A stretch of DNA of 48,405 bases, taken from positions 1 to 48,405 of IMG/VR virus record IMGVR_UViG_2932088517_000001; one strand, given 5' to 3'. The notes under the pieces are model-generated. The model ran no database searches. It saw only the letters and a program-made list of their open reading frames with translations, and had not been told where the DNA came from. Shown in pieces: positions 13,426-48,405 of this stretch (positions within the stretch are counted from its first letter, which is position 1; each line of letters begins with the position of its first letter). Made by a program: the position numbers and the translations under genes. This stretch comes from a virus.

Positions 13426-14322
13426 ATGGCAAAACCAAATTACGCACAAAATTATCAACAAGCTTTACAACAGAAATTTTCACAAGGTTTATACTTCTTC
13501 GATCTATACAATACGCCGAATAACCAAAATATCAAGTGGGTTAATTCAAAAACAATTCAAATCCCTCGTATCACTGTTGGAGGGTACACAGATGTTGATC
13601 GTGATGTAGTAGGCAATTTCACACGTAGAGCAGATAATGATTGGGAAACAAAAACGCTTGCTCATGACCGTGAGTTTAGAACTTTAGTAGATCCAAAGGA
13701 TATTGATGAAACAAATATGGCTTTATCTATCGCTAACATTACTCGTGTATTTAATGATGAGCAAAAGATTCCTGAAATGGATAAATACATGGCATCAAAA
13801 CTATACTCTGAATTCACTTCAAACGGCAAAACAGCAAACACAACTGCATTAACAGTAGATAATGTGTTAAGTATGTTTGATGATTTCATGATGGAAATGG
13901 ATGACGCTGAGGTTCCACAAGATGGACGTATTCTTTACGTGACTCCTCAAGTGAACAAGTTATTAAAACAAGCAAAAGAAATTCAACGTATGTTAGTTCT
14001 TAACTCTAACAACGGTACGGCTAATCGTAATGTTTATTCTCTTGATGACGTGAAAATTAAACCTGTTCCATCAACACGCATGAAAACTGCTTACAACTTC
14101 ACTAATGGCGCTGTTCCTGATGCTGCTGCAAAACAAGTTAATATGATTCTAGTTCATCCATTAGCTTTAATTACGCCACAACAATATGATTTCGTTAGCT
14201 TAGATTCACCAAGCGCAACTACTGGTGGAAAATTCCTTTATTACGAGCGTAAGTATTGGGATGTATTCGCTTTCCAAAAGAAAGTAGAAGGAATTAAATT
14301 TAATATCACTGCTGGAGCTTAA
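13426..14322 (+). CDS. major capsid protein
   Basis: 298 aa, strong AGGAG RBS, strong terminator after it, position. Confidence 0.8.
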   Translation: MAKPNYAQNYQQALQQKFSQGLYFFDLYNTPNNQNIKWVNSKTIQIPRITVGGYTDVDRDVVGNFTRRADNDWETKTLAHDREFRTLVDPKDIDETNMALSIANITRVFNDEQKIPEMDKYMASKLYSEFTSNGKTANTTALTVDNVLSMFDDFMMEMDDAEVPQDGRILYVTPQVNKLLKQAKEIQRMLVLNSNNGTANRNVYSLDDVKIKPVPSTRMKTAYNFTNGAVPDAAAKQVNMILVHPLALITPQQYDFVSLDSPSATTGGKFLYYERKYWDVFAFQKKVEGIKFNITAGA

Positions 14323-28509: not shown

Positions 28510-28785
28510 TTATAAACTAAAGTCGCCATCTTTAGATAATTTAGGTCTTTTCTTTTTAGGCGCTTCTTGTTGAGGTTGTGGCTCTTCTATTGCAATAGGT
28601 GCTCCTGATACATTCGGCATATGAATACCGCTACTTCCACCATTGCTTGCAATGTAATAGCGTATTGCATGACGTACTGTTTCTGCTTTTCTGCTTCTAG
28701 GAATCTTTTTTAACCATTCATGAATGTCTTTATCTAGCTGATCATCATAACTAAGCTGATAAATTTTACTCGCCATCTTCTTCAC
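28510..28785 (-). CDS. parR: ParR-like RHH centromere-binding adaptor
   Basis: Small protein immediately downstream of and overlapping parM; N-terminal RHH-like segment, Pro/Lys-rich tail; the start may be ATG 28776. Confidence 0.55.
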   Translation of the reverse strand: MKKMASKIYQLSYDDQLDKDIHEWLKKIPRSRKAETVRHAIRYYIASNGGSSGIHMPNVSGAPIAIEEPQPQQEAPKKKRPKLSKDGDFSL

Positions 28786-29785
28786 TCACTTTAAACATCC
28801 CATATTTGAAAAATCCTTCTGCGTTTGCTTGTTGTGGTTTTTCTGCCACCTTCACGCCACCAACTAAATCTTCAATAGCGCTTGCGAACAATTCCGCTCC
28901 ACCGCCAGTAATAATGATTTCATCGAAACGATCGAACGTTTTCCATGCGTTTTTAATACCTTGTTTAATCTTTTCAGATACTTGGAACACAGCTTTCGGT
29001 TTAACTTCTTCAAAATCAATAATGTGACGTTCTGAAAGTTTATACTGTCCTGATTCAAAGAATGGTTCAACATGGTAGTATTCCACTTTAGCATTAGAAT
29101 TTTGAGAATTGATATAATCAGCGATTTCTTGATAAACATCCTTCATTCCAGCCTCAACTGATTTGAACTCGTTTTCACGACGTAGTCCAGTGATTGAGTC
29201 TAAATCTGTTGTCCCTGTTCCGATATCAATTACTCCTACACGAATATCTTCGTAACGTTCATCAGCTACGAATCCCTCTGTATCTAAGTATTGGCCCATT
29301 ACAGTTCCGATAGGTTGAGGTAAAATGATAACTTCTTCTACATTAACCTTTACTGTTTTACCCTCGATTTTTACTGTATGTAACCCTTCGAAAACTTCTT
29401 TTAGATTATTAGCAGCTTCTGTACCAATTTCGTTACTTGGTACACCTGTAATTACAATTACTTCGTCTGTTGGTTGCACTTTACTTTTAAGAGCAAGATC
29501 AGCAAGAGCAATACTTGTTAACACTTTGTATAAAGGTTCTTTATATCTGTTTTGGAATCCATAAGTTGCAAATACATCTTTTACTTTTGTAATGTCTTTT
29601 CCCCAAACATATTCGATACCTTCAATTTCATAAGTCTTTAATTTTGCTTTTTTACCTGTAATTGATTCCCCTACATCCTTTTTAAAAGCCACTAATGAAG
29701 GTAATACTCCTGCTGCAACTTCACTTCTACCTTTAATGTTCCCATTGCCGTGGTCGATTACTAATACTTTTTTCACCAAATACAC
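28766..29785 (-). CDS. parM: ParM/StbA-family actin-like segregation ATPase
   Basis: VIDHGNGNIKG, VITGVP, VIDIGTGTTD and IIITGGGAEL actin-fold motifs; the start may be TTG/GTG 29779/29776. Confidence 0.8.
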   Translation of the reverse strand: MYLVKKVLVIDHGNGNIKGRSEVAAGVLPSLVAFKKDVGESITGKKAKLKTYEIEGIEYVWGKDITKVKDVFATYGFQNRYKEPLYKVLTSIALADLALKSKVQPTDEVIVITGVPSNEIGTEAANNLKEVFEGLHTVKIEGKTVKVNVEEVIILPQPIGTVMGQYLDTEGFVADERYEDIRVGVIDIGTGTTDLDSITGLRRENEFKSVEAGMKDVYQEIADYINSQNSNAKVEYYHVEPFFESGQYKLSERHIIDFEEVKPKAVFQVSEKIKQGIKNAWKTFDRFDEIIITGGGAELFASAIEDLVGGVKVAEKPQQANAEGFFKYGMFKVSEEDGE

Positions 29786-30923: not shown

Positions 30924-32237
30924 GTGTTAGCTATACGGCAATCACAGGAAACATTTATTGATGAATGGCATGAATGCTATCTATCAGAACATAAAAAAAG
31001 CGGATATATAGCCGTTTTAGATCTAAGCGGTAGCGAGAAGAAGCAATTATGGATAGGCACGAACGATGTTAAAACTCTTTCAAACATGTCTACCCCTTCA
31101 AATAAGGACTTTTATCTATCTCTGAATAGTTTCACATTCGGAAGTAGGAAAGCGACAGATTTAAAGCAAATAAGAAATATTGGTGTGGATCTAGATTTTT
31201 ATAAGTTGGATATTTCAAAAGAATACGTGATTCAGAATTTACAAGATTGTATCGCTGAAGGATTGTTACCATGTCCAAACCTTGTAATGTACGGAAGAGG
31301 AATGCAGCTGATTTACACTGTACAAGGCGGAGCTGCCCCGCAAATGGCGTTTTTATCTCAATACATAACGAATCATTTCATAAAGATGTTAATGCCATTA
31401 GGAGCCGATGGATCATGCAGTGACCTTTCAAGGGTTTTACGTATGCCATATACGACTCATAGCAAAACTGGAAAGCAAATAGGTCTTGAAATTTGGACAA
31501 GACGTGAGCATGATTTACAAGAATTATATGATTATGTGCCACCTTTAGAGAAGAAGAGACAACCAAAACGCACCGCGACACGTAAAAAAGGGTCAATTTC
31601 AACTATTCCGAGTCAAAAAGGCGTGATGAACCTTTATAGTTTGAATACAAAAAGGAAATCCGATCTAGAGAAGATTGTAATGCTCAGAAACGGCGAAATA
31701 GAGCATAGACACGACATGACATACATTTATGCCTTTACCACTGCTTTAATCGTTAAAAACCAAACAGCGACGCTAGAAATGACGTTTCAATTAAACAATA
31801 AGTTCAAAGAACCACAGAAACGAAAAGAAATAGAACGGACGGCAAAAGATGCGTACAAAGATGCGATTGCATTTTTCGATGCTTTTTCGGCTAACAACTT
31901 CAGTAAACAAGGATTACCATACAGTTTAATAAAACCAATGAAAACAGAGACGATTTTTAAAAAACTAGACATTAAACTGACAGAAGAAGAGCTTGAAGTA
32001 ATGGATACACTGATTGATTCTGAAGAAATTAAGAAGAGAGACAAGCTAAGAAAACGAAAAGCACGTGGATCTGTGAGCAAAGATGAATATTCTAAGAAAT
32101 TATCTGAGGGGAAAAACGAAAAAATAGAAAGTATAAAGAAAAGTATAAAAGAAAATCCAAAAGCCTCTATCAGAAAAATAGCCGAAATAACAGGATTGTC
32201 CAAGTCAGTAGTAGCTAGATTAAGAAAAGAAATATAG
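30924..32237 (+). CDS. plasmid-type replication initiator (Rep), C-terminal HTH
   Basis: GTG start after AAGGAGG; FYLSLNSFTFGSRK...NIGVDLDF motif reminiscent of primase-polymerase/Rep initiators; C-terminal IRKIAEITGLSKSVVARLRKEI. Confidence 0.6.
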   Translation: MLAIRQSQETFIDEWHECYLSEHKKSGYIAVLDLSGSEKKQLWIGTNDVKTLSNMSTPSNKDFYLSLNSFTFGSRKATDLKQIRNIGVDLDFYKLDISKEYVIQNLQDCIAEGLLPCPNLVMYGRGMQLIYTVQGGAAPQMAFLSQYITNHFIKMLMPLGADGSCSDLSRVLRMPYTTHSKTGKQIGLEIWTRREHDLQELYDYVPPLEKKRQPKRTATRKKGSISTIPSQKGVMNLYSLNTKRKSDLEKIVMLRNGEIEHRHDMTYIYAFTTALIVKNQTATLEMTFQLNNKFKEPQKRKEIERTAKDAYKDAIAFFDAFSANNFSKQGLPYSLIKPMKTETIFKKLDIKLTEEELEVMDTLIDSEEIKKRDKLRKRKARGSVSKDEYSKKLSEGKNEKIESIKKSIKENPKASIRKIAEITGLSKSVVARLRKEI

Positions 32238-34371: not shown

Positions 34372-34716
34372 TCAGAACGTATCTTGGTTATCTTTAATCA
34401 TTTGAATGAACAATAACACTTGATTGCAAAAACGCTCTTTCTGAGCATCGTCTAACGCCCCATACGTTGACCTAGCTTCAGAAATGACTTGCTGTATTGG
34501 TTCATCCTCGAAATTGTTAGAGAAACCTACAAGGACGTCTAAAGAAACGTTGAAAAAGGAGGCGATACTCGCTAAAGTTTGAATATCAGGTTGGAATCGA
34601 TTAGTTTCCCAATTCTTAATTTGACTCTGACTTAAATTAAGAGTTTCAGCTAACTCCGCTTGTGTTAAATCACGCGACTTTCTTAATTGTTTTAAAGTTT
34701 GTCCAAAGATTATCAT
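34372..34716 (-). CDS. XRE/cI-like repressor number 2 (114 aa)
   Basis: LKQLRKSRDLTQAELAETLNLSQSQIKNWE HTH plus a C-terminal dimerisation-like region. Confidence 0.75.
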   Translation of the reverse strand: MIIFGQTLKQLRKSRDLTQAELAETLNLSQSQIKNWETNRFQPDIQTLASIASFFNVSLDVLVGFSNNFEDEPIQQVISEARSTYGALDDAQKERFCNQVLLFIQMIKDNQDTF

Positions 34717-34804: not shown

Positions 34805-34850
34805 AAATTTAAAAACAAAATAGAACAAAAGTTCGTATTCTGTGGTAAAA

Positions 34851-34885
34851 TATGCATGTGAGGTCTTTATTATGTCACATGCATA
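34851..34885. promoter_or_regulatory. 11-bp inverted repeat TATGCATGTGA-N13-TCACATGCATA overlapping a TGGTAAAAT extended -10
   Basis: Read directly; followed by a T-rich tract. Confidence 0.45.
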
Positions 34886-34941: not shown

Positions 34942-34992
34942 ACTTTCTCAATAATTGTCTGACAATCATAGGACTGAATATTGGGAAATTTG

Positions 34993-35001: not shown

Positions 35002-35214
35002 GAAAACAAATAAAATAAACGGACGTGAAAAAAGACCCACGGTGTAAGTAGTGTTGGAAGCACTCTTACACTGCCCCCTAAGTGCCTAGGGAACATTGTC
35101 GCGGATCTTGTACATACATATTATAACACACCTTAGATTGAAAGTGGCGCGTTTTCCTTTATATGTAACAAATTGGGGTTTACGTGTCTTTTGTCCATAA
35201 GGAGGACAAAGATT

Positions 35215-36399
35215 GTGCGAGTTTTATTAGATTTGAACGACATGAAGGAATGTTTAAAAACAAATGGTTATACGAATCGAAAATTAGCAACACGTTTCAA
35301 AGTAACGCACACTACAGTAAATAGTTATTTTAACAAACAAGGTAAATTTGATTTTATGCACTTAGTTGACGCACTTCGGTTATATAAACCTAAAGATGTT
35401 GAATTCCGAAGAAATTGTATTAAAGAGTATATACCGACATTGTCACATAAAAATTTAAAGTTAGCGTTAGAAGTTCTGGATATGTTCGGAGAGTACGATC
35501 TTCAAGAACTTGTAATTGAACAGATTTTGAATTCGCAAACAAAAAAAGGTGATTCTTTAACTGTACGAACCAATGTAAGAATTGCTGAGTTTTATCAACT
35601 GCTTGGGCAAAGAAGCGCAGGTACTATTACTGTAAGAGATTTTTTTGAAAAGGTCGAAAAGAAGAGAGATTTACAAAAAAATACAGAAAATGATTTGATG
35701 ATTATATCAGATTTTAGTGCAATGTATTCGTATTTAGATTTTAGTAATTATCAAAAGGTTAATGAATATATCGAAAGCGCATTACCCCGAATTGAAAAAA
35801 TTTCAAAACATACAAATAAAAATTCATTTTTACTTCGTGTGAAAGAAATGAAAGTTTCTATTCATTTACACAACAAAGGGGACTTAAATAGAGCGCGTGA
35901 AATCTGCTTAGAAATTTTAAATGACCCTTTTAACTATTATGTAAGTACGAAAGCAATCGCTTATTGTAAGTTAGGTGAAAGTTATGCGCTGACTGATTAC
36001 GAAAAGGCGAAACACTATATTTGTAAAGCACTTGAAATTATCGGGGAACCAACCAACAAAAAATTAGAAATAAGAAAAAATAAAATATTAAACGTTTTTT
36101 TATTTCTAAAAATACATCACGGAAAAGAATTGGATACAATTGATCGTACGAAACTTGATTTAGCAGAGCTTGCGTTTTTTTATATAAGAATAGGAAAAAA
36201 AGAAGAAGCTATAGAAATACTTAGAGGTCTAAAAAAACAAAACGGTTACCTTAGTAGTTTTCAGTTGTATTATATGGGTCTTGCAGTTGGAGGGGAAGAA
36301 GGGAAAAGATACCTAGAAATGTCCGCAGAAAGTTTTTCTAAATCAGGTGATTTTTTCTATATTTCTCTACCAAAAGAAGCCCTAAAATGTTATAATTGA
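35215..36399 (+). CDS. aimR: AimR-like arbitrium receptor (HTH + TPR, RRNPP-type), 394 aa
   Basis: GTG 35215 has AAGGAGG 8 nt upstream; N-terminal HTH (YTNRKLATRFKVTHTTVNSYF); TPR-like repeats (e.g. LGESYALTDYEKAKHYICKALEI); followed by the secreted-peptide gene. Confidence 0.7.
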   Translation: MRVLLDLNDMKECLKTNGYTNRKLATRFKVTHTTVNSYFNKQGKFDFMHLVDALRLYKPKDVEFRRNCIKEYIPTLSHKNLKLALEVLDMFGEYDLQELVIEQILNSQTKKGDSLTVRTNVRIAEFYQLLGQRSAGTITVRDFFEKVEKKRDLQKNTENDLMIISDFSAMYSYLDFSNYQKVNEYIESALPRIEKISKHTNKNSFLLRVKEMKVSIHLHNKGDLNRAREICLEILNDPFNYYVSTKAIAYCKLGESYALTDYEKAKHYICKALEIIGEPTNKKLEIRKNKILNVFLFLKIHHGKELDTIDRTKLDLAELAFFYIRIGKKEEAIEILRGLKKQNGYLSSFQLYYMGLAVGGEEGKRYLEMSAESFSKSGDFFYISLPKEALKCYN

Positions 36400-36425
36400 G
36401 GCATATATAAAAGGTGGTGAAACAC

Positions 36426-36566
36426 TTGAAAACCAAGATTTTAAGCTTAGTTTTAGCGATTGCGGCTGCTGCAACATTTACATTTGCGCCAGCTACAAAA
36501 CAAAGTAAAGTTGAAGAAGTAAACGCGCCAGTATTATATATGGATCCAAATCCAGGTGGCGGTTGA
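36426..36566 (+). CDS. aimP: AimP-like secreted pro-peptide (46 aa)
   Basis: TTG start 7 nt after AAGGTGGTGA; MKTKILSLVLAIAAAATFTFAPATKQSKVEEVNAPVLYMDPNPGGG*; signal-peptide-like N-terminus, Gly-rich C-terminus. Confidence 0.65.
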   Translation: MKTKILSLVLAIAAAATFTFAPATKQSKVEEVNAPVLYMDPNPGGG

Positions 36567-36587
36567 TTTATATAGATAATAATATTA

Positions 36588-36621
36588 GAAATGACACTAT
36601 CAAACTGGATAGTGTCATTTC
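36588..36621 (+). promoter_or_regulatory. Perfect 14-bp inverted repeat after aimP (terminator and/or AimR operator), followed by direct repeats TTATAGAGAA at 36626 and 36654
   Basis: gaaatgacactatc-aaactg-gatagtgtcatttc. Confidence 0.6.
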
Positions 36622-36731
36622 TGCTTTATAGAGAATGGAAACTTTTTTATAGATTATAGAGAAAAAACGACAAAAACTTTCCGCTTTTCATGATTCACAA
36701 ACTACTATGAAGATACTGGAGGATGTTGGGG

Positions 36732-36857
36732 ATGACAAAAGAGCAATTAGCAAAAGAGTTAATGGTAAAATGGTTGTTAGAAAACAAGGGGACAAATGCT
36801 GAAGATGTGTTAAAATCTCTCACTTCAGATGCATATAAAAATGAAATAGCGAAATAA
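36732..36857 (+). CDS. 41-aa ORF in the aimX position
   Basis: GGAGG 9 nt upstream; MTKEQLAKELMVKWLLENKGTNAEDVLKSLTSDAYKNEIAK*; convergent with the cI-like gene. Confidence 0.45.
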   Translation: MTKEQLAKELMVKWLLENKGTNAEDVLKSLTSDAYKNEIAK

Positions 36858-36890
36858 AAAAAGCTAACCAAACGGTTAGCTTTTTGTTTA
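36856..36890. terminator. Bidirectional intrinsic terminator
   Basis: aaagctaacc-aaac-ggttagcttt flanked by A and T runs. Confidence 0.7.
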
Positions 36891-36892
36891 CA

Positions 36893-37240
36893 TTAATCAT
36901 TATCTTTTGTTTTTGTGAAGTTGACATACATTAAAGCTTGTTTCCAAGCATTTTCTTGCTCCGCCTCTGGTAAATCCGCAACTAACTCTGCAAAACGCTT
37001 AGCCATATCATTAGTAACTTTATCTTCCGATTCAGTTAAACGTGAGTCTGATGATCTCCCTAATAAGTAATCAGATGTTACACAAAATAAATCAGCAAGT
37101 GCATTAAGTACAGTCATACTAGGTTCTATTCGATTATTTTCTAAGTGTGAATACGTCGCTCGGGATATATTTAATGAGTTAGCTATATCACCTTGCGTAC
37201 GCTTTCCCCTCAATTGTTTTAATTTATCTCCAAAAGTCAT
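36893..37240 (-). CDS. XRE/cI-like repressor number 1 (115 aa)
   Basis: LKQLRGKRTQGDIANSLNISRATYSHLE HTH; divergent from the cro-like gene. Confidence 0.8.
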   Translation of the reverse strand: MTFGDKLKQLRGKRTQGDIANSLNISRATYSHLENNRIEPSMTVLNALADLFCVTSDYLLGRSSDSRLTESEDKVTNDMAKRFAELVADLPEAEQENAWKQALMYVNFTKTKDND

Positions 37241-37280
37241 TTTTAATTTTCCCCTCTCAGTGAATCCTTAATTACATTAT

Positions 37281-37372
37281 AGATACAATTTTTATCACTT
37301 TAAACCCCTTTTCGTAAAAATGATAAAAAATTTATAAAAGTTGTTGACGATAAATTTTTTATCATCTATACT
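37281..37372. promoter_or_regulatory. Genetic-switch region: 17-bp operators TGATAAA-AAA-TTTATCA (37281-97 imperfect, 37321-37, 37348-64) and rightward promoter TTGACG-17-TATACT (37344-37372)
   Basis: Operator 37348-64 fills the promoter spacer; leftward TTTAAA-17-TATAAT on the - strand at 37276-37304. Confidence 0.65.
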
Positions 37373-37414: not shown

Positions 37415-37636
37415 ATGAAAGTCGATCTAAAGCAAGAAAGAAAAACAATGAAATTAACTCAAAGTGAATTAGCTGAAAAGCTTGGTATATCAACGGTTTA
37501 TGTTCGTAAAATCGAAAACGGATATTTACCTAGACCTGACATAATGGTTAAATATCAGGATGTTTTTAATATAAGTGTTACCGAGTTATTCCCTGAATAT
37601 TTTGCGGTATTTAATGATAAAAAATTTATCATTTAG
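37415..37636 (+). CDS. Cro-like XRE HTH protein (73 aa)
   Basis: LTQSELAEKLGISTVYVRKIE; first gene of the rightward early operon. Confidence 0.75.
   Translation: MKVDLKQERKTMKLTQSELAEKLGISTVYVRKIENGYLPRPDIMVKYQDVFNISVTELFPEYFAVFNDKKFII
37615..37631. promoter_or_regulatory. Fourth, perfect copy of the operator palindrome TGATAAAAAATTTATCA at the 3' end of the cro-like gene
   Basis: Read directly. Confidence 0.5.
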
Positions 37637-48145: not shown

Positions 48146-48405
48146 ACTTTAAAGAATATCAAACAGCAGTTACAAGAACATTTGCAGTAGGAAGAACATA
48201 CGAGCAGGACGCTACAAACTACGCTATGGGATTATGTGGGGAAGCAGGAGAAGTTACGGACCATATCAAGAAGGCGGTATATCATGGCCATAATTTAAAT
48301 GAAGACGAAGTAGAAAAGGAATTAGGCGATGTGCTTTGGTAGCTGGCGGCGTTAGCAGAAACACACCATCTTGATTTAAATGAGATCGCGGAGAAGAACA
48401 TTTAT
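48142..48405 (+). pseudogene. mazG: MazG-like NTP pyrophosphohydrolase, 5' part, with an in-frame TAG at 48340-48342
   Basis: MNFKEYQTAV...GLCGEAGEVTDHIKK...EKELGDVLW*LAALAE; the frame continues into bases 33-164 of the window. Confidence 0.7.

Follow-up and report, generated by a model that had tools for sequence, protein, structure and literature searches.

A probable extended arbitrium module at the repressor switch of an apparent Bacillus cereus-group phage-plasmid

The locus described here occupies positions 35215-36857 of a viral sequence of 48,405 nucleotides (nt), IMG/VR record IMGVR_UViG_2932088517_000001 (the whole stretch, positions 1 to 48,405, is referred to as the window). Its closest described relatives are the arbitrium systems, in which a receptor (AimR) and a secreted pro-peptide (AimP) bear on the choice between lysis and lysogeny. 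In phages SPbeta and phi3T, AimR is an antiterminator whose site lies just downstream of the terminator following aimP, at a distance from it that is important (PMC10769878, PMC6458997). The SPbeta operator consists of 6-mer inverted repeats with a spacer of 25 base pairs (bp), and affinity drops above a spacer of about 28 bp (PMC6458997). Kabel et al. assigned approximately 75% of arbitrium systems to a five-gene module, aimR-aimP-aimX-aimC-aimL, which they studied in phi106, phiW23, Wbeta, Waukesha92-like phages and BMBtp14. In this extended arbitrium module, AimX, an antirepressor of 29-80 amino acids (aa), binds AimC at the latter's C-terminal oligomerisation domain; AimC itself is a short repressor of the promoter of the cro-like gene aimL. 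The antisense RNA that had been proposed earlier plays little role (bioRxiv 10.1101/2025.11.23.689978).

The region in the window is a genuine arbitrium module (AimR, AimP and AimX) at a repressor switch, of a system type that has already been described and is automatically annotated, and we consider it highly probable that it is the signalling half of an extended arbitrium module. A preliminary description had read it as an arbitrium-type aimR-aimP-aimX cassette at the lysis-lysogeny switch; that reading is borne out by family profiles, the predicted receptor fold, a conserved AimP and a coding aimX open reading frame (ORF). The window matches the extended module gene for gene in order and orientation, with a terminator after aimP. 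The single helix-turn-helix (HTH) gene of 80-140 aa, lacking autocleavage and convergent with aimRP, that marks the extended type agrees with the AimC (115 aa) and AimL (73 aa) of the window, as does the 41-aa AimX with the expected coding ORF of 29-80 aa that co-varies with AimC. The AimX/AimC pair is nevertheless of a different sequence type from those that have been tested. Each of the 27 real related loci that were retrieved has the same gene order, with AimP directly after aimR, and this recurrence shows that the elements are not there by chance. One further record (L002) was left out of this count.

Comparison with SPbeta and phi3T, whose receptors belong to AimR clade 2 (5xyb, 6hp3, 5zvv), gives a mixture of likeness and difference. 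The AimR fold is alike, with template-modelling (TM) scores of up to 0.79, aimP lies directly downstream of aimR, and terminator, long-spacer inverted repeat and aimX follow in the same order. However, the window AimR is only 20-22% identical to those of clade 2, the peptide ends in PNPGGG rather than xxxRGA, and the spacer of the inverted repeat is 36 bp instead of 25 bp. SPbeta and phi3T carry sroA-F/yopR downstream, where the window has cI/cro-like aimC and aimL, and the window AimX is not MazE-like. Because of the PNPGGG peptide, the aimC/aimL genes and the low identity to clade 2 receptors, the locus belongs to the arbitrium family but is not of the SPbeta type.

The receptor, the pro-peptide and the signal

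The 394-aa protein encoded by aimR (35215-36399, + strand) is AimR, as its size and domain order had suggested at first description, and is predicted to act as arbitrium peptide receptor and antiterminator. It matched the NCBIfam model NF038310 (lysogeny_AimR, "AimR family lysis-lysogeny pheromone receptor") with 391.2 bits against a cut-off of 70 (E 4.4e-117), and the match spanned model positions 1-365 of 365. The Pfam family PF22871 was matched with 146.5 bits against a cut-off of 26.7 (E 1.3e-42). A single-sequence phmmer search of the PDB with AimR found nothing, whereas a profile built from 38 AimR homologues matched the AimR entries 5zvw/5zvv (E 1.4e-14). Homologues that are 62-97% identical are abundant in B. 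cereus-group genomes, many of them already named AimR by NCBI. The start codon is GTG, 9 nt after AGGAGG; phages BVE2 and phBC6A52 share the conserved residues that precede M10, and homologues of 394 aa have been called by NCBI.

The AlphaFold2 (AF2) model of AimR is all-helical, with 21 helices arranged as an N-terminal HTH and a body resembling tetratricopeptide repeats (TPR), and has a mean predicted local distance difference test score (pLDDT) of 90 and a predicted TM-score (pTM) of 0.83. When this model was compared to the PDB with Foldseek, ranks 1-16 were all AimR crystal structures (TM 0.61-0.79, E 3e-10 to 2e-7), with 5zw6, 6hp3, 6s7i, 5zvv and 9f36 among the top entries, and generic TPR proteins followed at E of about 2e-3. 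Profile comparison with AimR and folding of the TPR body, two of the checks put forward in the preliminary description, thus gave AimR matches and a TPR-like helical body. Another receptor of the RRNPP group (Rap, NprR or PlcR) was considered as the identity of this protein and rejected: the Pfam and NCBIfam scans of the 394-aa protein gave no match to these families, and the structural matches to Rap, PlcR and NprR were weak (E of about 5e-3 to 1e-2, TM 0.36-0.44) and ranked below every AimR entry.

The pro-peptide gene aimP (36426-36566, + strand) begins 26 nt after the aimR stop codon and encodes a predicted secreted protein of 46 aa that matches phrog_2682 (E 1.7e-11). Its start codon is TTG, not ATG, and lies 8 nt after GGTGG. 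A heuristic check, which is not SignalP, predicts a signal peptide of about residues 1-23, with Lys2 and Lys4, a hydrophobic core at about residues 5-20 (Kyte-Doolittle mean over 11 residues of up to 2.8) and A-P-A before T24, and this segment is conserved in homologues. The gap, the family match and these features agree with the shape of a secreted pro-peptide that had been recognised in this ORF from the outset.

Conservation within AimP places the predicted signalling peptide in the invariant C-terminus ...LYMDPNPGGG, with export a further expectation. Ten clusters of AimP homologues all terminate in Y-[MS]-DPNPGGG, and across 12 sequences Y38, D40, P41, P43, G44, G45 and G46 are invariant while residues 24-37 are variable. 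C-termini in related subclades read ...DPGPGGG (0105phi7-2, BVE2, phBC6A52), ...DPGGTGG (IEBH) and ...DPGGGW (Athena). The peptides EIKPGG and MMSEPGGGGW are reported to be active in other B. cereus-group phages (PMC11945551), and it is plausible that the mature peptide here has 6-10 residues with GGG at its end.

The signal had been taken to be probably private to one phage lineage, and this does not hold. The window shares the MDPNPGGG C-terminus with 15 others of the fetched loci, which come from several species of the B. cereus group, and most of the ten AimP clusters are each represented on 1 to 13 contigs. Among the MDPNPGGG loci there are at least five unrelated aimX-aimC-aimL modules on differing backbones, which indicates that different phages share the signal.

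The region between aimP and aimX

Downstream of aimP lies an intrinsic terminator (36587-36622, + strand), where antitermination would be expected to take place. Its arms (36587-36601 and 36608-36622) form a perfect inverted repeat of 15 bp around a 6-nt loop, followed by UGCUUUAU; the perfect repeat noted earlier between aimP and aimX is therefore present, with arms one base pair longer than the 14 bp first given. The folding energy of the hairpin RNA is -22.5 kcal/mol, and for the entire stretch between aimP and aimX the folding z-score is -4.6. The hairpin is conserved in 23 related loci. In an alignment of 14 loci, 96% of cells at the hairpin are paired and three pairs show compensatory changes, and one U-G wobble functions only in RNA of the + strand. 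No match to Rfam was found for the leader upstream of aimR, the terminator or the intergenic region, two sub-threshold matches having been dismissed.

Beyond the terminator, TGGAAA-N36-TTTCCG (36636-36683) was identified as a candidate AimR operator because the layout is that of SPbeta and phi3T, the offset from the terminator is constant and the repeat is conserved in the subclade. The inverted 6-mers begin exactly 17 nt after the hairpin core. The pattern TGGAA[AG]-N-TTTCC[AG] occurs in 24 of 24 fetched loci of the AimR subclade (window included), with the 17-nt offset constant wherever it was measured. The recognition segment of the receptor HTH, T31-H-T-T-V-N36, does not vary among 38 AimRs, in keeping with the invariant half-sites. 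In more distant clades a related hairpin is followed by long-spacer repeats of another sequence, such as GTGTTT-N31/32-AAACAC in B83 and BMBtp14. The stretch 36588-36663, offered earlier as a probe for AimR binding, stops short of the right half-site (36678-36683) of the candidate operator.

The spacer falls into two classes that track the type of peptide, being 35 or 36 bp in 15 of 15 MDPNPGGG loci and 24 bp in all nine loci of the PGPGGG or IEBH type. In a comparison with L001, L004-L006 and L025-L028, the half-sites and the 17-nt terminator offset were identical in both classes. AimRs that go with the 24-bp spacer have about 8-12 inserted residues following the HTH region. If the half-sites are correctly assigned, two such classes would imply either unusual flexibility of AimR or a different binding geometry.

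The palindrome of the hairpin itself was also considered as the AimR operator, and was rejected on two grounds. Its core, ATGACAC...GTGTCAT, is common to BMBtp14, B83 and Athena, which have very different AimR HTH sequences, and its variation is of a kind that keeps the RNA paired, including the U-G wobble.

In the window as a whole the operator pattern has three matches where 0.5 would be expected, and a single palindromic site accounts for two of the three, one on each strand. This second site, TGGAAA-N39-TTTCCA at 14226-14276, is a perfect palindromic pair of half-sites in the half of the window that carries the virion genes, and is probably a chance match given that expectation. SPbeta AimR, however, reportedly binds additional sites with longer spacers.

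The promoter scan found no promoter-like site on the + strand from 35124 to 36789, and thus none for aimP or aimX. The two genes aimR and aimP would be transcribed together, since the gap that separates them is just 26 nt and contains no promoter-like site. A LexA box between aimP and aimX, as in phi106, was likewise absent; in the window such a box is found upstream of aimR instead.

AimX and the aimC-aimL switch

The gene in the aimX position (36732-36857, + strand) encodes a helical protein of 41 aa that is predicted to be an AimC antirepressor. It is protein-coding and under purifying selection: it has GGAGG 9 nt upstream, NCBI annotates a 41-aa protein of identical sequence in Bacillus sp. 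FSL R7-0642, and the ratio of nonsynonymous to synonymous substitution rates (dN/dS) is 0.05-0.54 against four orthologues. An ORF with a good ribosome-binding site had been noted at this position, and it is indeed a conserved coding sequence. The AF2 model has three helices, at modest confidence (pLDDT 70). Every AimX homologue that was located sits between aimP and an AimC-type gene, and over 16 loci the identities of AimX and AimC rise and fall together (AimX/AimC 66/81% for Athena, 47-50/49-50% for the 0105phi7-2 group, 17-34/22-35% elsewhere). Likewise, L025 to L028 have the same AimX type with the same AimC type. The predicted role of AimX as antirepressor of AimC is drawn from the proteins studied by Kabel et al. 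(bioRxiv 10.1101/2025.11.23.689978).

The gene convergent with aimX, aimC (36893-37240, - strand), encodes a 115-aa repressor with an HTH, a linker and a C-terminal helical domain and with no autocleavage domain. It belongs to the AimC family. The protein has Pfam HTH_31 and HTH_3 domains, and a profile-profile comparison matched it to the AimC of BMBtp14/B83 (the protein of PDB entry 9IAQ) over 106 columns with a probability of 97.8% and E 7e-13; phmmer against 9iaq gave E 0.0012. It is 81% identical to gp8 of phage Athena. Listeria phages (A500 gp33, LP040) and phages of Paenibacillus and Caldibacillus also have AimC-like repressors, with 33-38% full-length identity. None of these was recovered in the search of the phage collection for AimR homologues, suggesting that this type of repressor is more widespread than arbitrium.

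On the far side of aimC is the aimC-aimL switch region (37276-37372), which was delineated by repeat search, promoter scan and motif comparison. It contains the GATA-N7-TATC palindromes GATAcAATTTTTATC (37282-37296) and GATAAATTTTTTATC (37349-37363), with an imperfect copy near 37320-37335, and these overlap two promoter-like sites, P_aimC (- strand, 37304 to 37276) and P_aimL (+ strand, 37344-37372). The switch regions of Athena and 0105phi7-2 contain two to four copies of GATA-N7-TATC, and we infer that palindromes of this form are the AimC operators. The gene aimL (37415-37636, + strand) encodes a 73-aa cro-like HTH protein (Pfam HTH_3, E 5.9e-15) and is the first gene of the early lytic operon; its position and orientation match those of the published module, and it is followed by genes for a DUF3102 protein, an ERF recombinase and a replisome organiser.

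Whether the effector is the AimX protein or its transcript is a question raised by the arrangement of aimX and aimC, which converge with 35 nt between them. Under a hypothesis of 2019, also suggested in the preliminary description, read-through would continue from aimX into aimC and act on the repressor through antisense pairing or transcriptional collision. The preprint of Kabel et al. describes RNA-seq from two other phages in which peptide-dependent aimX transcripts extend across the repressor gene (bioRxiv 10.1101/2025.11.23.689978). However, a bidirectional intrinsic terminator occupies the intervening DNA (36858-36885), as had been pointed out earlier, with a 12-bp stem flanked by A and T runs and energies of -15.4 and -14.9 kcal/mol on the two strands, and the purifying selection on aimX is at the level of protein. 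Furthermore, in phi106 and phiW23 mutation of the aimX start codon to a stop abolished the response, and recoded or antisense-only constructs gave no antisense effect (bioRxiv 10.1101/2025.11.23.689978). An RNA effector is therefore unlikely in the window, and the AimX protein is most likely the effector.

A protein effector could in principle act elsewhere than on the phage repressor. In phi3T, AimX is also a small protein made through AimR antitermination (PMC10769878), and by that precedent the 41-aa protein would be an antitoxin-like peptide that neutralises a MazF-type toxin of the host. Here the Pfam and NCBIfam scans linked AimX to no MazE-like family, the locus has aimC and aimL rather than an SPbeta-type operon, and AimX identity co-varies with that of the adjacent AimC. 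The SPbeta-like architecture has been reported only for AimR clade 2 (bioRxiv 10.1101/2025.11.23.689978). A role of this kind is extremely improbable for the window.

For the antirepressor role, Kabel et al. drew an analogy to SinR-SinI of B. subtilis, in which a small helical protein would act on the C-terminal domain of an HTH repressor and so keep the repressor from oligomerising. The likeness to the window is mechanistic only. AimX was also considered as a mimic of the AimC C-terminal domain in the style of SinI and SinR, and no alignment was found.

The signalling pair and the trio of antirepressor, repressor and cro genes have different relatives. Loci in which AimR is 80-97% and AimP 70-89% identical to those of the window have AimX, AimC and AimL that are only 17-35% identical, except for L019 (47-50%). 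Conversely, phage Athena (vB_BanS_Athena) has a distant AimR (29% identical) and a ...DPGGGW peptide together with close AimX, AimC and AimL (66, 81 and 77%), and L025 combines a 98%-identical AimC with an aimRP of the PGPGGG type. These mismatches in identity indicate that the signalling pair and the trio are exchanged as separate cassettes. The aimRP type of the window is 97% identical to that of a contig derived from the Sequence Read Archive (SRA) and 80-89% identical to those of many B. cereus-group genomes, and it was not found in the phage collection. The phages 0105phi7-2, BVE2, phBC6A52, IEBH and 250 have the same layout, terminator and TGGAAA...TTTCCA half-sites as the window. Their AimRs are 62-65% (0105phi7-2, BVE2 and phBC6A52) or 46% (IEBH and 250) identical to that of the window; these relatives have ...DPGPGGG or ...DPGGTGG peptides and a 24-bp spacer, compared to ...DPNPGGG and 36 bp. 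In 0105phi7-2 the two genes are annotated as "AimR-like quorum sensing transcription regulator" and "putative quorum sensing peptide".

Several observations weigh against assigning the window to the extended system with the operator proposed above. AimC is only 24-25% identical to the tested AimC proteins of Waukesha92 and BMBtp14, and Wbeta was not among the AimC homologues at E <= 1e-8. No sequence similarity was detected between AimX and AimC. In the candidate operator the right half-site of the window is TTTCCG, compared to TTTCCA in 23 of 23 fetched relatives of the subclade. Moreover, N36 places the half-site centres 42 bp apart, and 36 bp is longer than any characterised AimR spacer. 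With a spacer so far beyond the 25 bp of SPbeta, the half-sites could be wrongly assigned or the binding geometry could be different.

The altered half-site raises the further possibility that the cassette is present with impaired output, caused by the mutated TTTCCG at a point where recombination would have joined an aimRP of the MDPNPGGG type to a foreign aimX-aimC-aimL. Of the 24 fetched subclade loci, only the window has a G at this base (36683), and the trio is 66-81% identical in protein (about 80% in DNA) to that of Athena, whose AimR is so distant, while the AimC in L025 is paired with a different aimRP. Against this, all five genes are intact, the change affects the outermost base of the half-site, and changes at the boundary of the SPbeta palindrome had minor effects (PMC6458997). 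The terminator and the 17-nt offset are unchanged as well. We regard impaired output as very unlikely.

For a functional extended module, the following sequence of events would be expected. AimP would be exported by way of its signal peptide, processed outside the cell to a ...DPNPGGG peptide of 6-10 residues and re-imported to bind AimR. Peptide-free AimR would bind the TGGAAA and TTTCCG half-sites 17 nt past the aimP terminator, allowing read-through into aimX. The helical 41-aa AimX would then bind the C-terminal oligomerisation domain of AimC and remove AimC from its GATA-N7-TATC operators, so that P_aimL could fire and the lytic and replication genes be expressed. As the peptide accumulates, AimR would leave the DNA and transcription would stop at the terminator; no AimX would be made, AimC would repress, and the phage would enter or stay in lysogeny. 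Experiments in SPbeta/phi3T, phi106, phiW23, Wbeta, Waukesha92-like phages and BMBtp14 are the basis on which export and maturation of the peptide, DNA binding and antitermination by AimR, and the contact between AimX and AimC are inferred here.

The region upstream of aimR and the host element

The DNA upstream of aimR contains a LexA-like (Cheo) box, AGAACAAAAGTTCG (34822-34835), which holds the sole GAAC-N4-GTTC in the 48.4-kb window (core at 34823-34834, at a distance of 392 nt from aimR). Of 26 loci, 21 have a perfect box 386-442 nt ahead of aimR; Waukesha92, BMBtp14 and B83 are among them, and the 21 span several AimR clades (equivalents were located in L001, L003, L006-L018, L021-L023 and L026-L028), and no other perfect box occurs elsewhere in 212 kb of the same loci. 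The arms of the box are conserved, the central N4 is variable, and the DNA to its left cannot be aligned. The box persists in loci that lack the HTH gene upstream, which ties it to aimR. Just downstream is an extended -10 element, TGgTAAAAT (34843-34851, + strand), which was read from the sequence and would belong to a rightward promoter whose -35 and spacer region is covered by the box; TGnTAAAAT is kept downstream of the box in the clade of the window and in Waukesha92, BMBtp14 and B83.

In phi106 a LexA site is located at aimX, between aimP and aimX (bioRxiv 10.1101/2021.09.20.460909), and the route by which DNA damage acts was stated to be unknown for extended systems without such a site (bioRxiv 10.1101/2025.11.23.689978). 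We tentatively propose, at somewhat less than even confidence, that in extended arbitrium systems of the B. cereus group the SOS signal enters at the top of the cascade through the LexA box upstream of aimR. If so, DNA damage would derepress a long transcript with a structured leader, aimR-aimP-(terminator)-aimX, and this could answer the question raised by Kabel et al. of how extended systems without a LexA site at aimX are induced by damage. No report of a LexA box or leader upstream of aimR was found in the searchable literature.

The non-coding leader of aimR (35008-35214, + strand), with predicted stem-loops, is 83% identical in nucleotide sequence to those of IEBH and phage 250, whose AimRs are 46% identical in aa sequence, so that the leader is more conserved than the protein. 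RNAalifold predicted four stems with 42 pairs, ten of them with compensatory change, and the last stem (35190-35196/35204-35210) overlaps the Shine-Dalgarno sequence of aimR. A promoter-like site, TTGTCG-17-TATTAT, was identified by the promoter scan at 35096-35124 (+ strand), and a palindrome, ATTGTCtGACAAT, is present at about 34957-34969, which reads TTATCaGATAA in relatives.

Further upstream, a divergent gene (34372-34716, - strand) encodes a 114-aa XRE/HTH protein (Pfam HTH_3, E 2.4e-16) that is a paralogue of AimC: the two proteins share 30% identity along their full length, C-terminal domain included (E 1e-16). To the "putative immunity repressor" of 0105phi7-2 it is 96% identical. The gene is accessory and stands outside the five genes; many relatives share this extra AimC paralogue upstream of aimR with the window, unlike the module of Kabel et al. 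Relatives of the integrase type (L007, L027 and L028) lack the gene, and at least three sequence types of it occur among the relatives.

The element as a whole appears to be a circular phage-plasmid of about 48.3 kb from the Bacillus cereus group, of the IEBH/0105phi7-2 kind. The first and last 95 bp of the window are identical (1-95 and 48311-48405), and the contig is therefore circular. It carries an actin-like ParM/Alp segregation gene (28766-29785, - strand), no integrase was found among the ten ORFs scanned near the module, and its structural genes resemble those of B. cereus-group "plasmids" of about 50 kb; together with circularity, these features point to a phage-plasmid. A large ORF (30924-32237, + strand) may be replication-related, as a RepB-primase gene is annotated upstream of the module in 0105phi7-2.

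The locus that was left out of the count, L002, is a stretch of a public "complete genome" of B. toyonensis (CP170571.1, 4480490-4487668) in which coding sequences are joined head-to-tail, co-oriented and with zero intergenic DNA, every stop codon running straight into the next start. It looks like an artefact record, and without intergenic DNA it is useless for regulatory analysis. In this record an aimRP of the window type (96%) is joined to aimX, aimC and aimL of the IEBH type.

As an arbitrium module the locus adds little, given that the receptor family is named by the NCBI pipeline, the architecture and mechanism are published, and closely related loci are present in dozens of B. cereus-group genomes. 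Its value is comparative. For an AimR clade other than that of SPbeta it gives a concrete operator prediction with two spacer classes, and the conserved LexA box upstream of aimR is a candidate link between DNA damage and arbitrium in the B. cereus group. The ...MDPNPGGG signal and its receptor occur as a pair with at least five unrelated antirepressor/repressor/cro modules and on different phage backbones, a shuffling which suggests that unrelated phages within one host group should hear each other.

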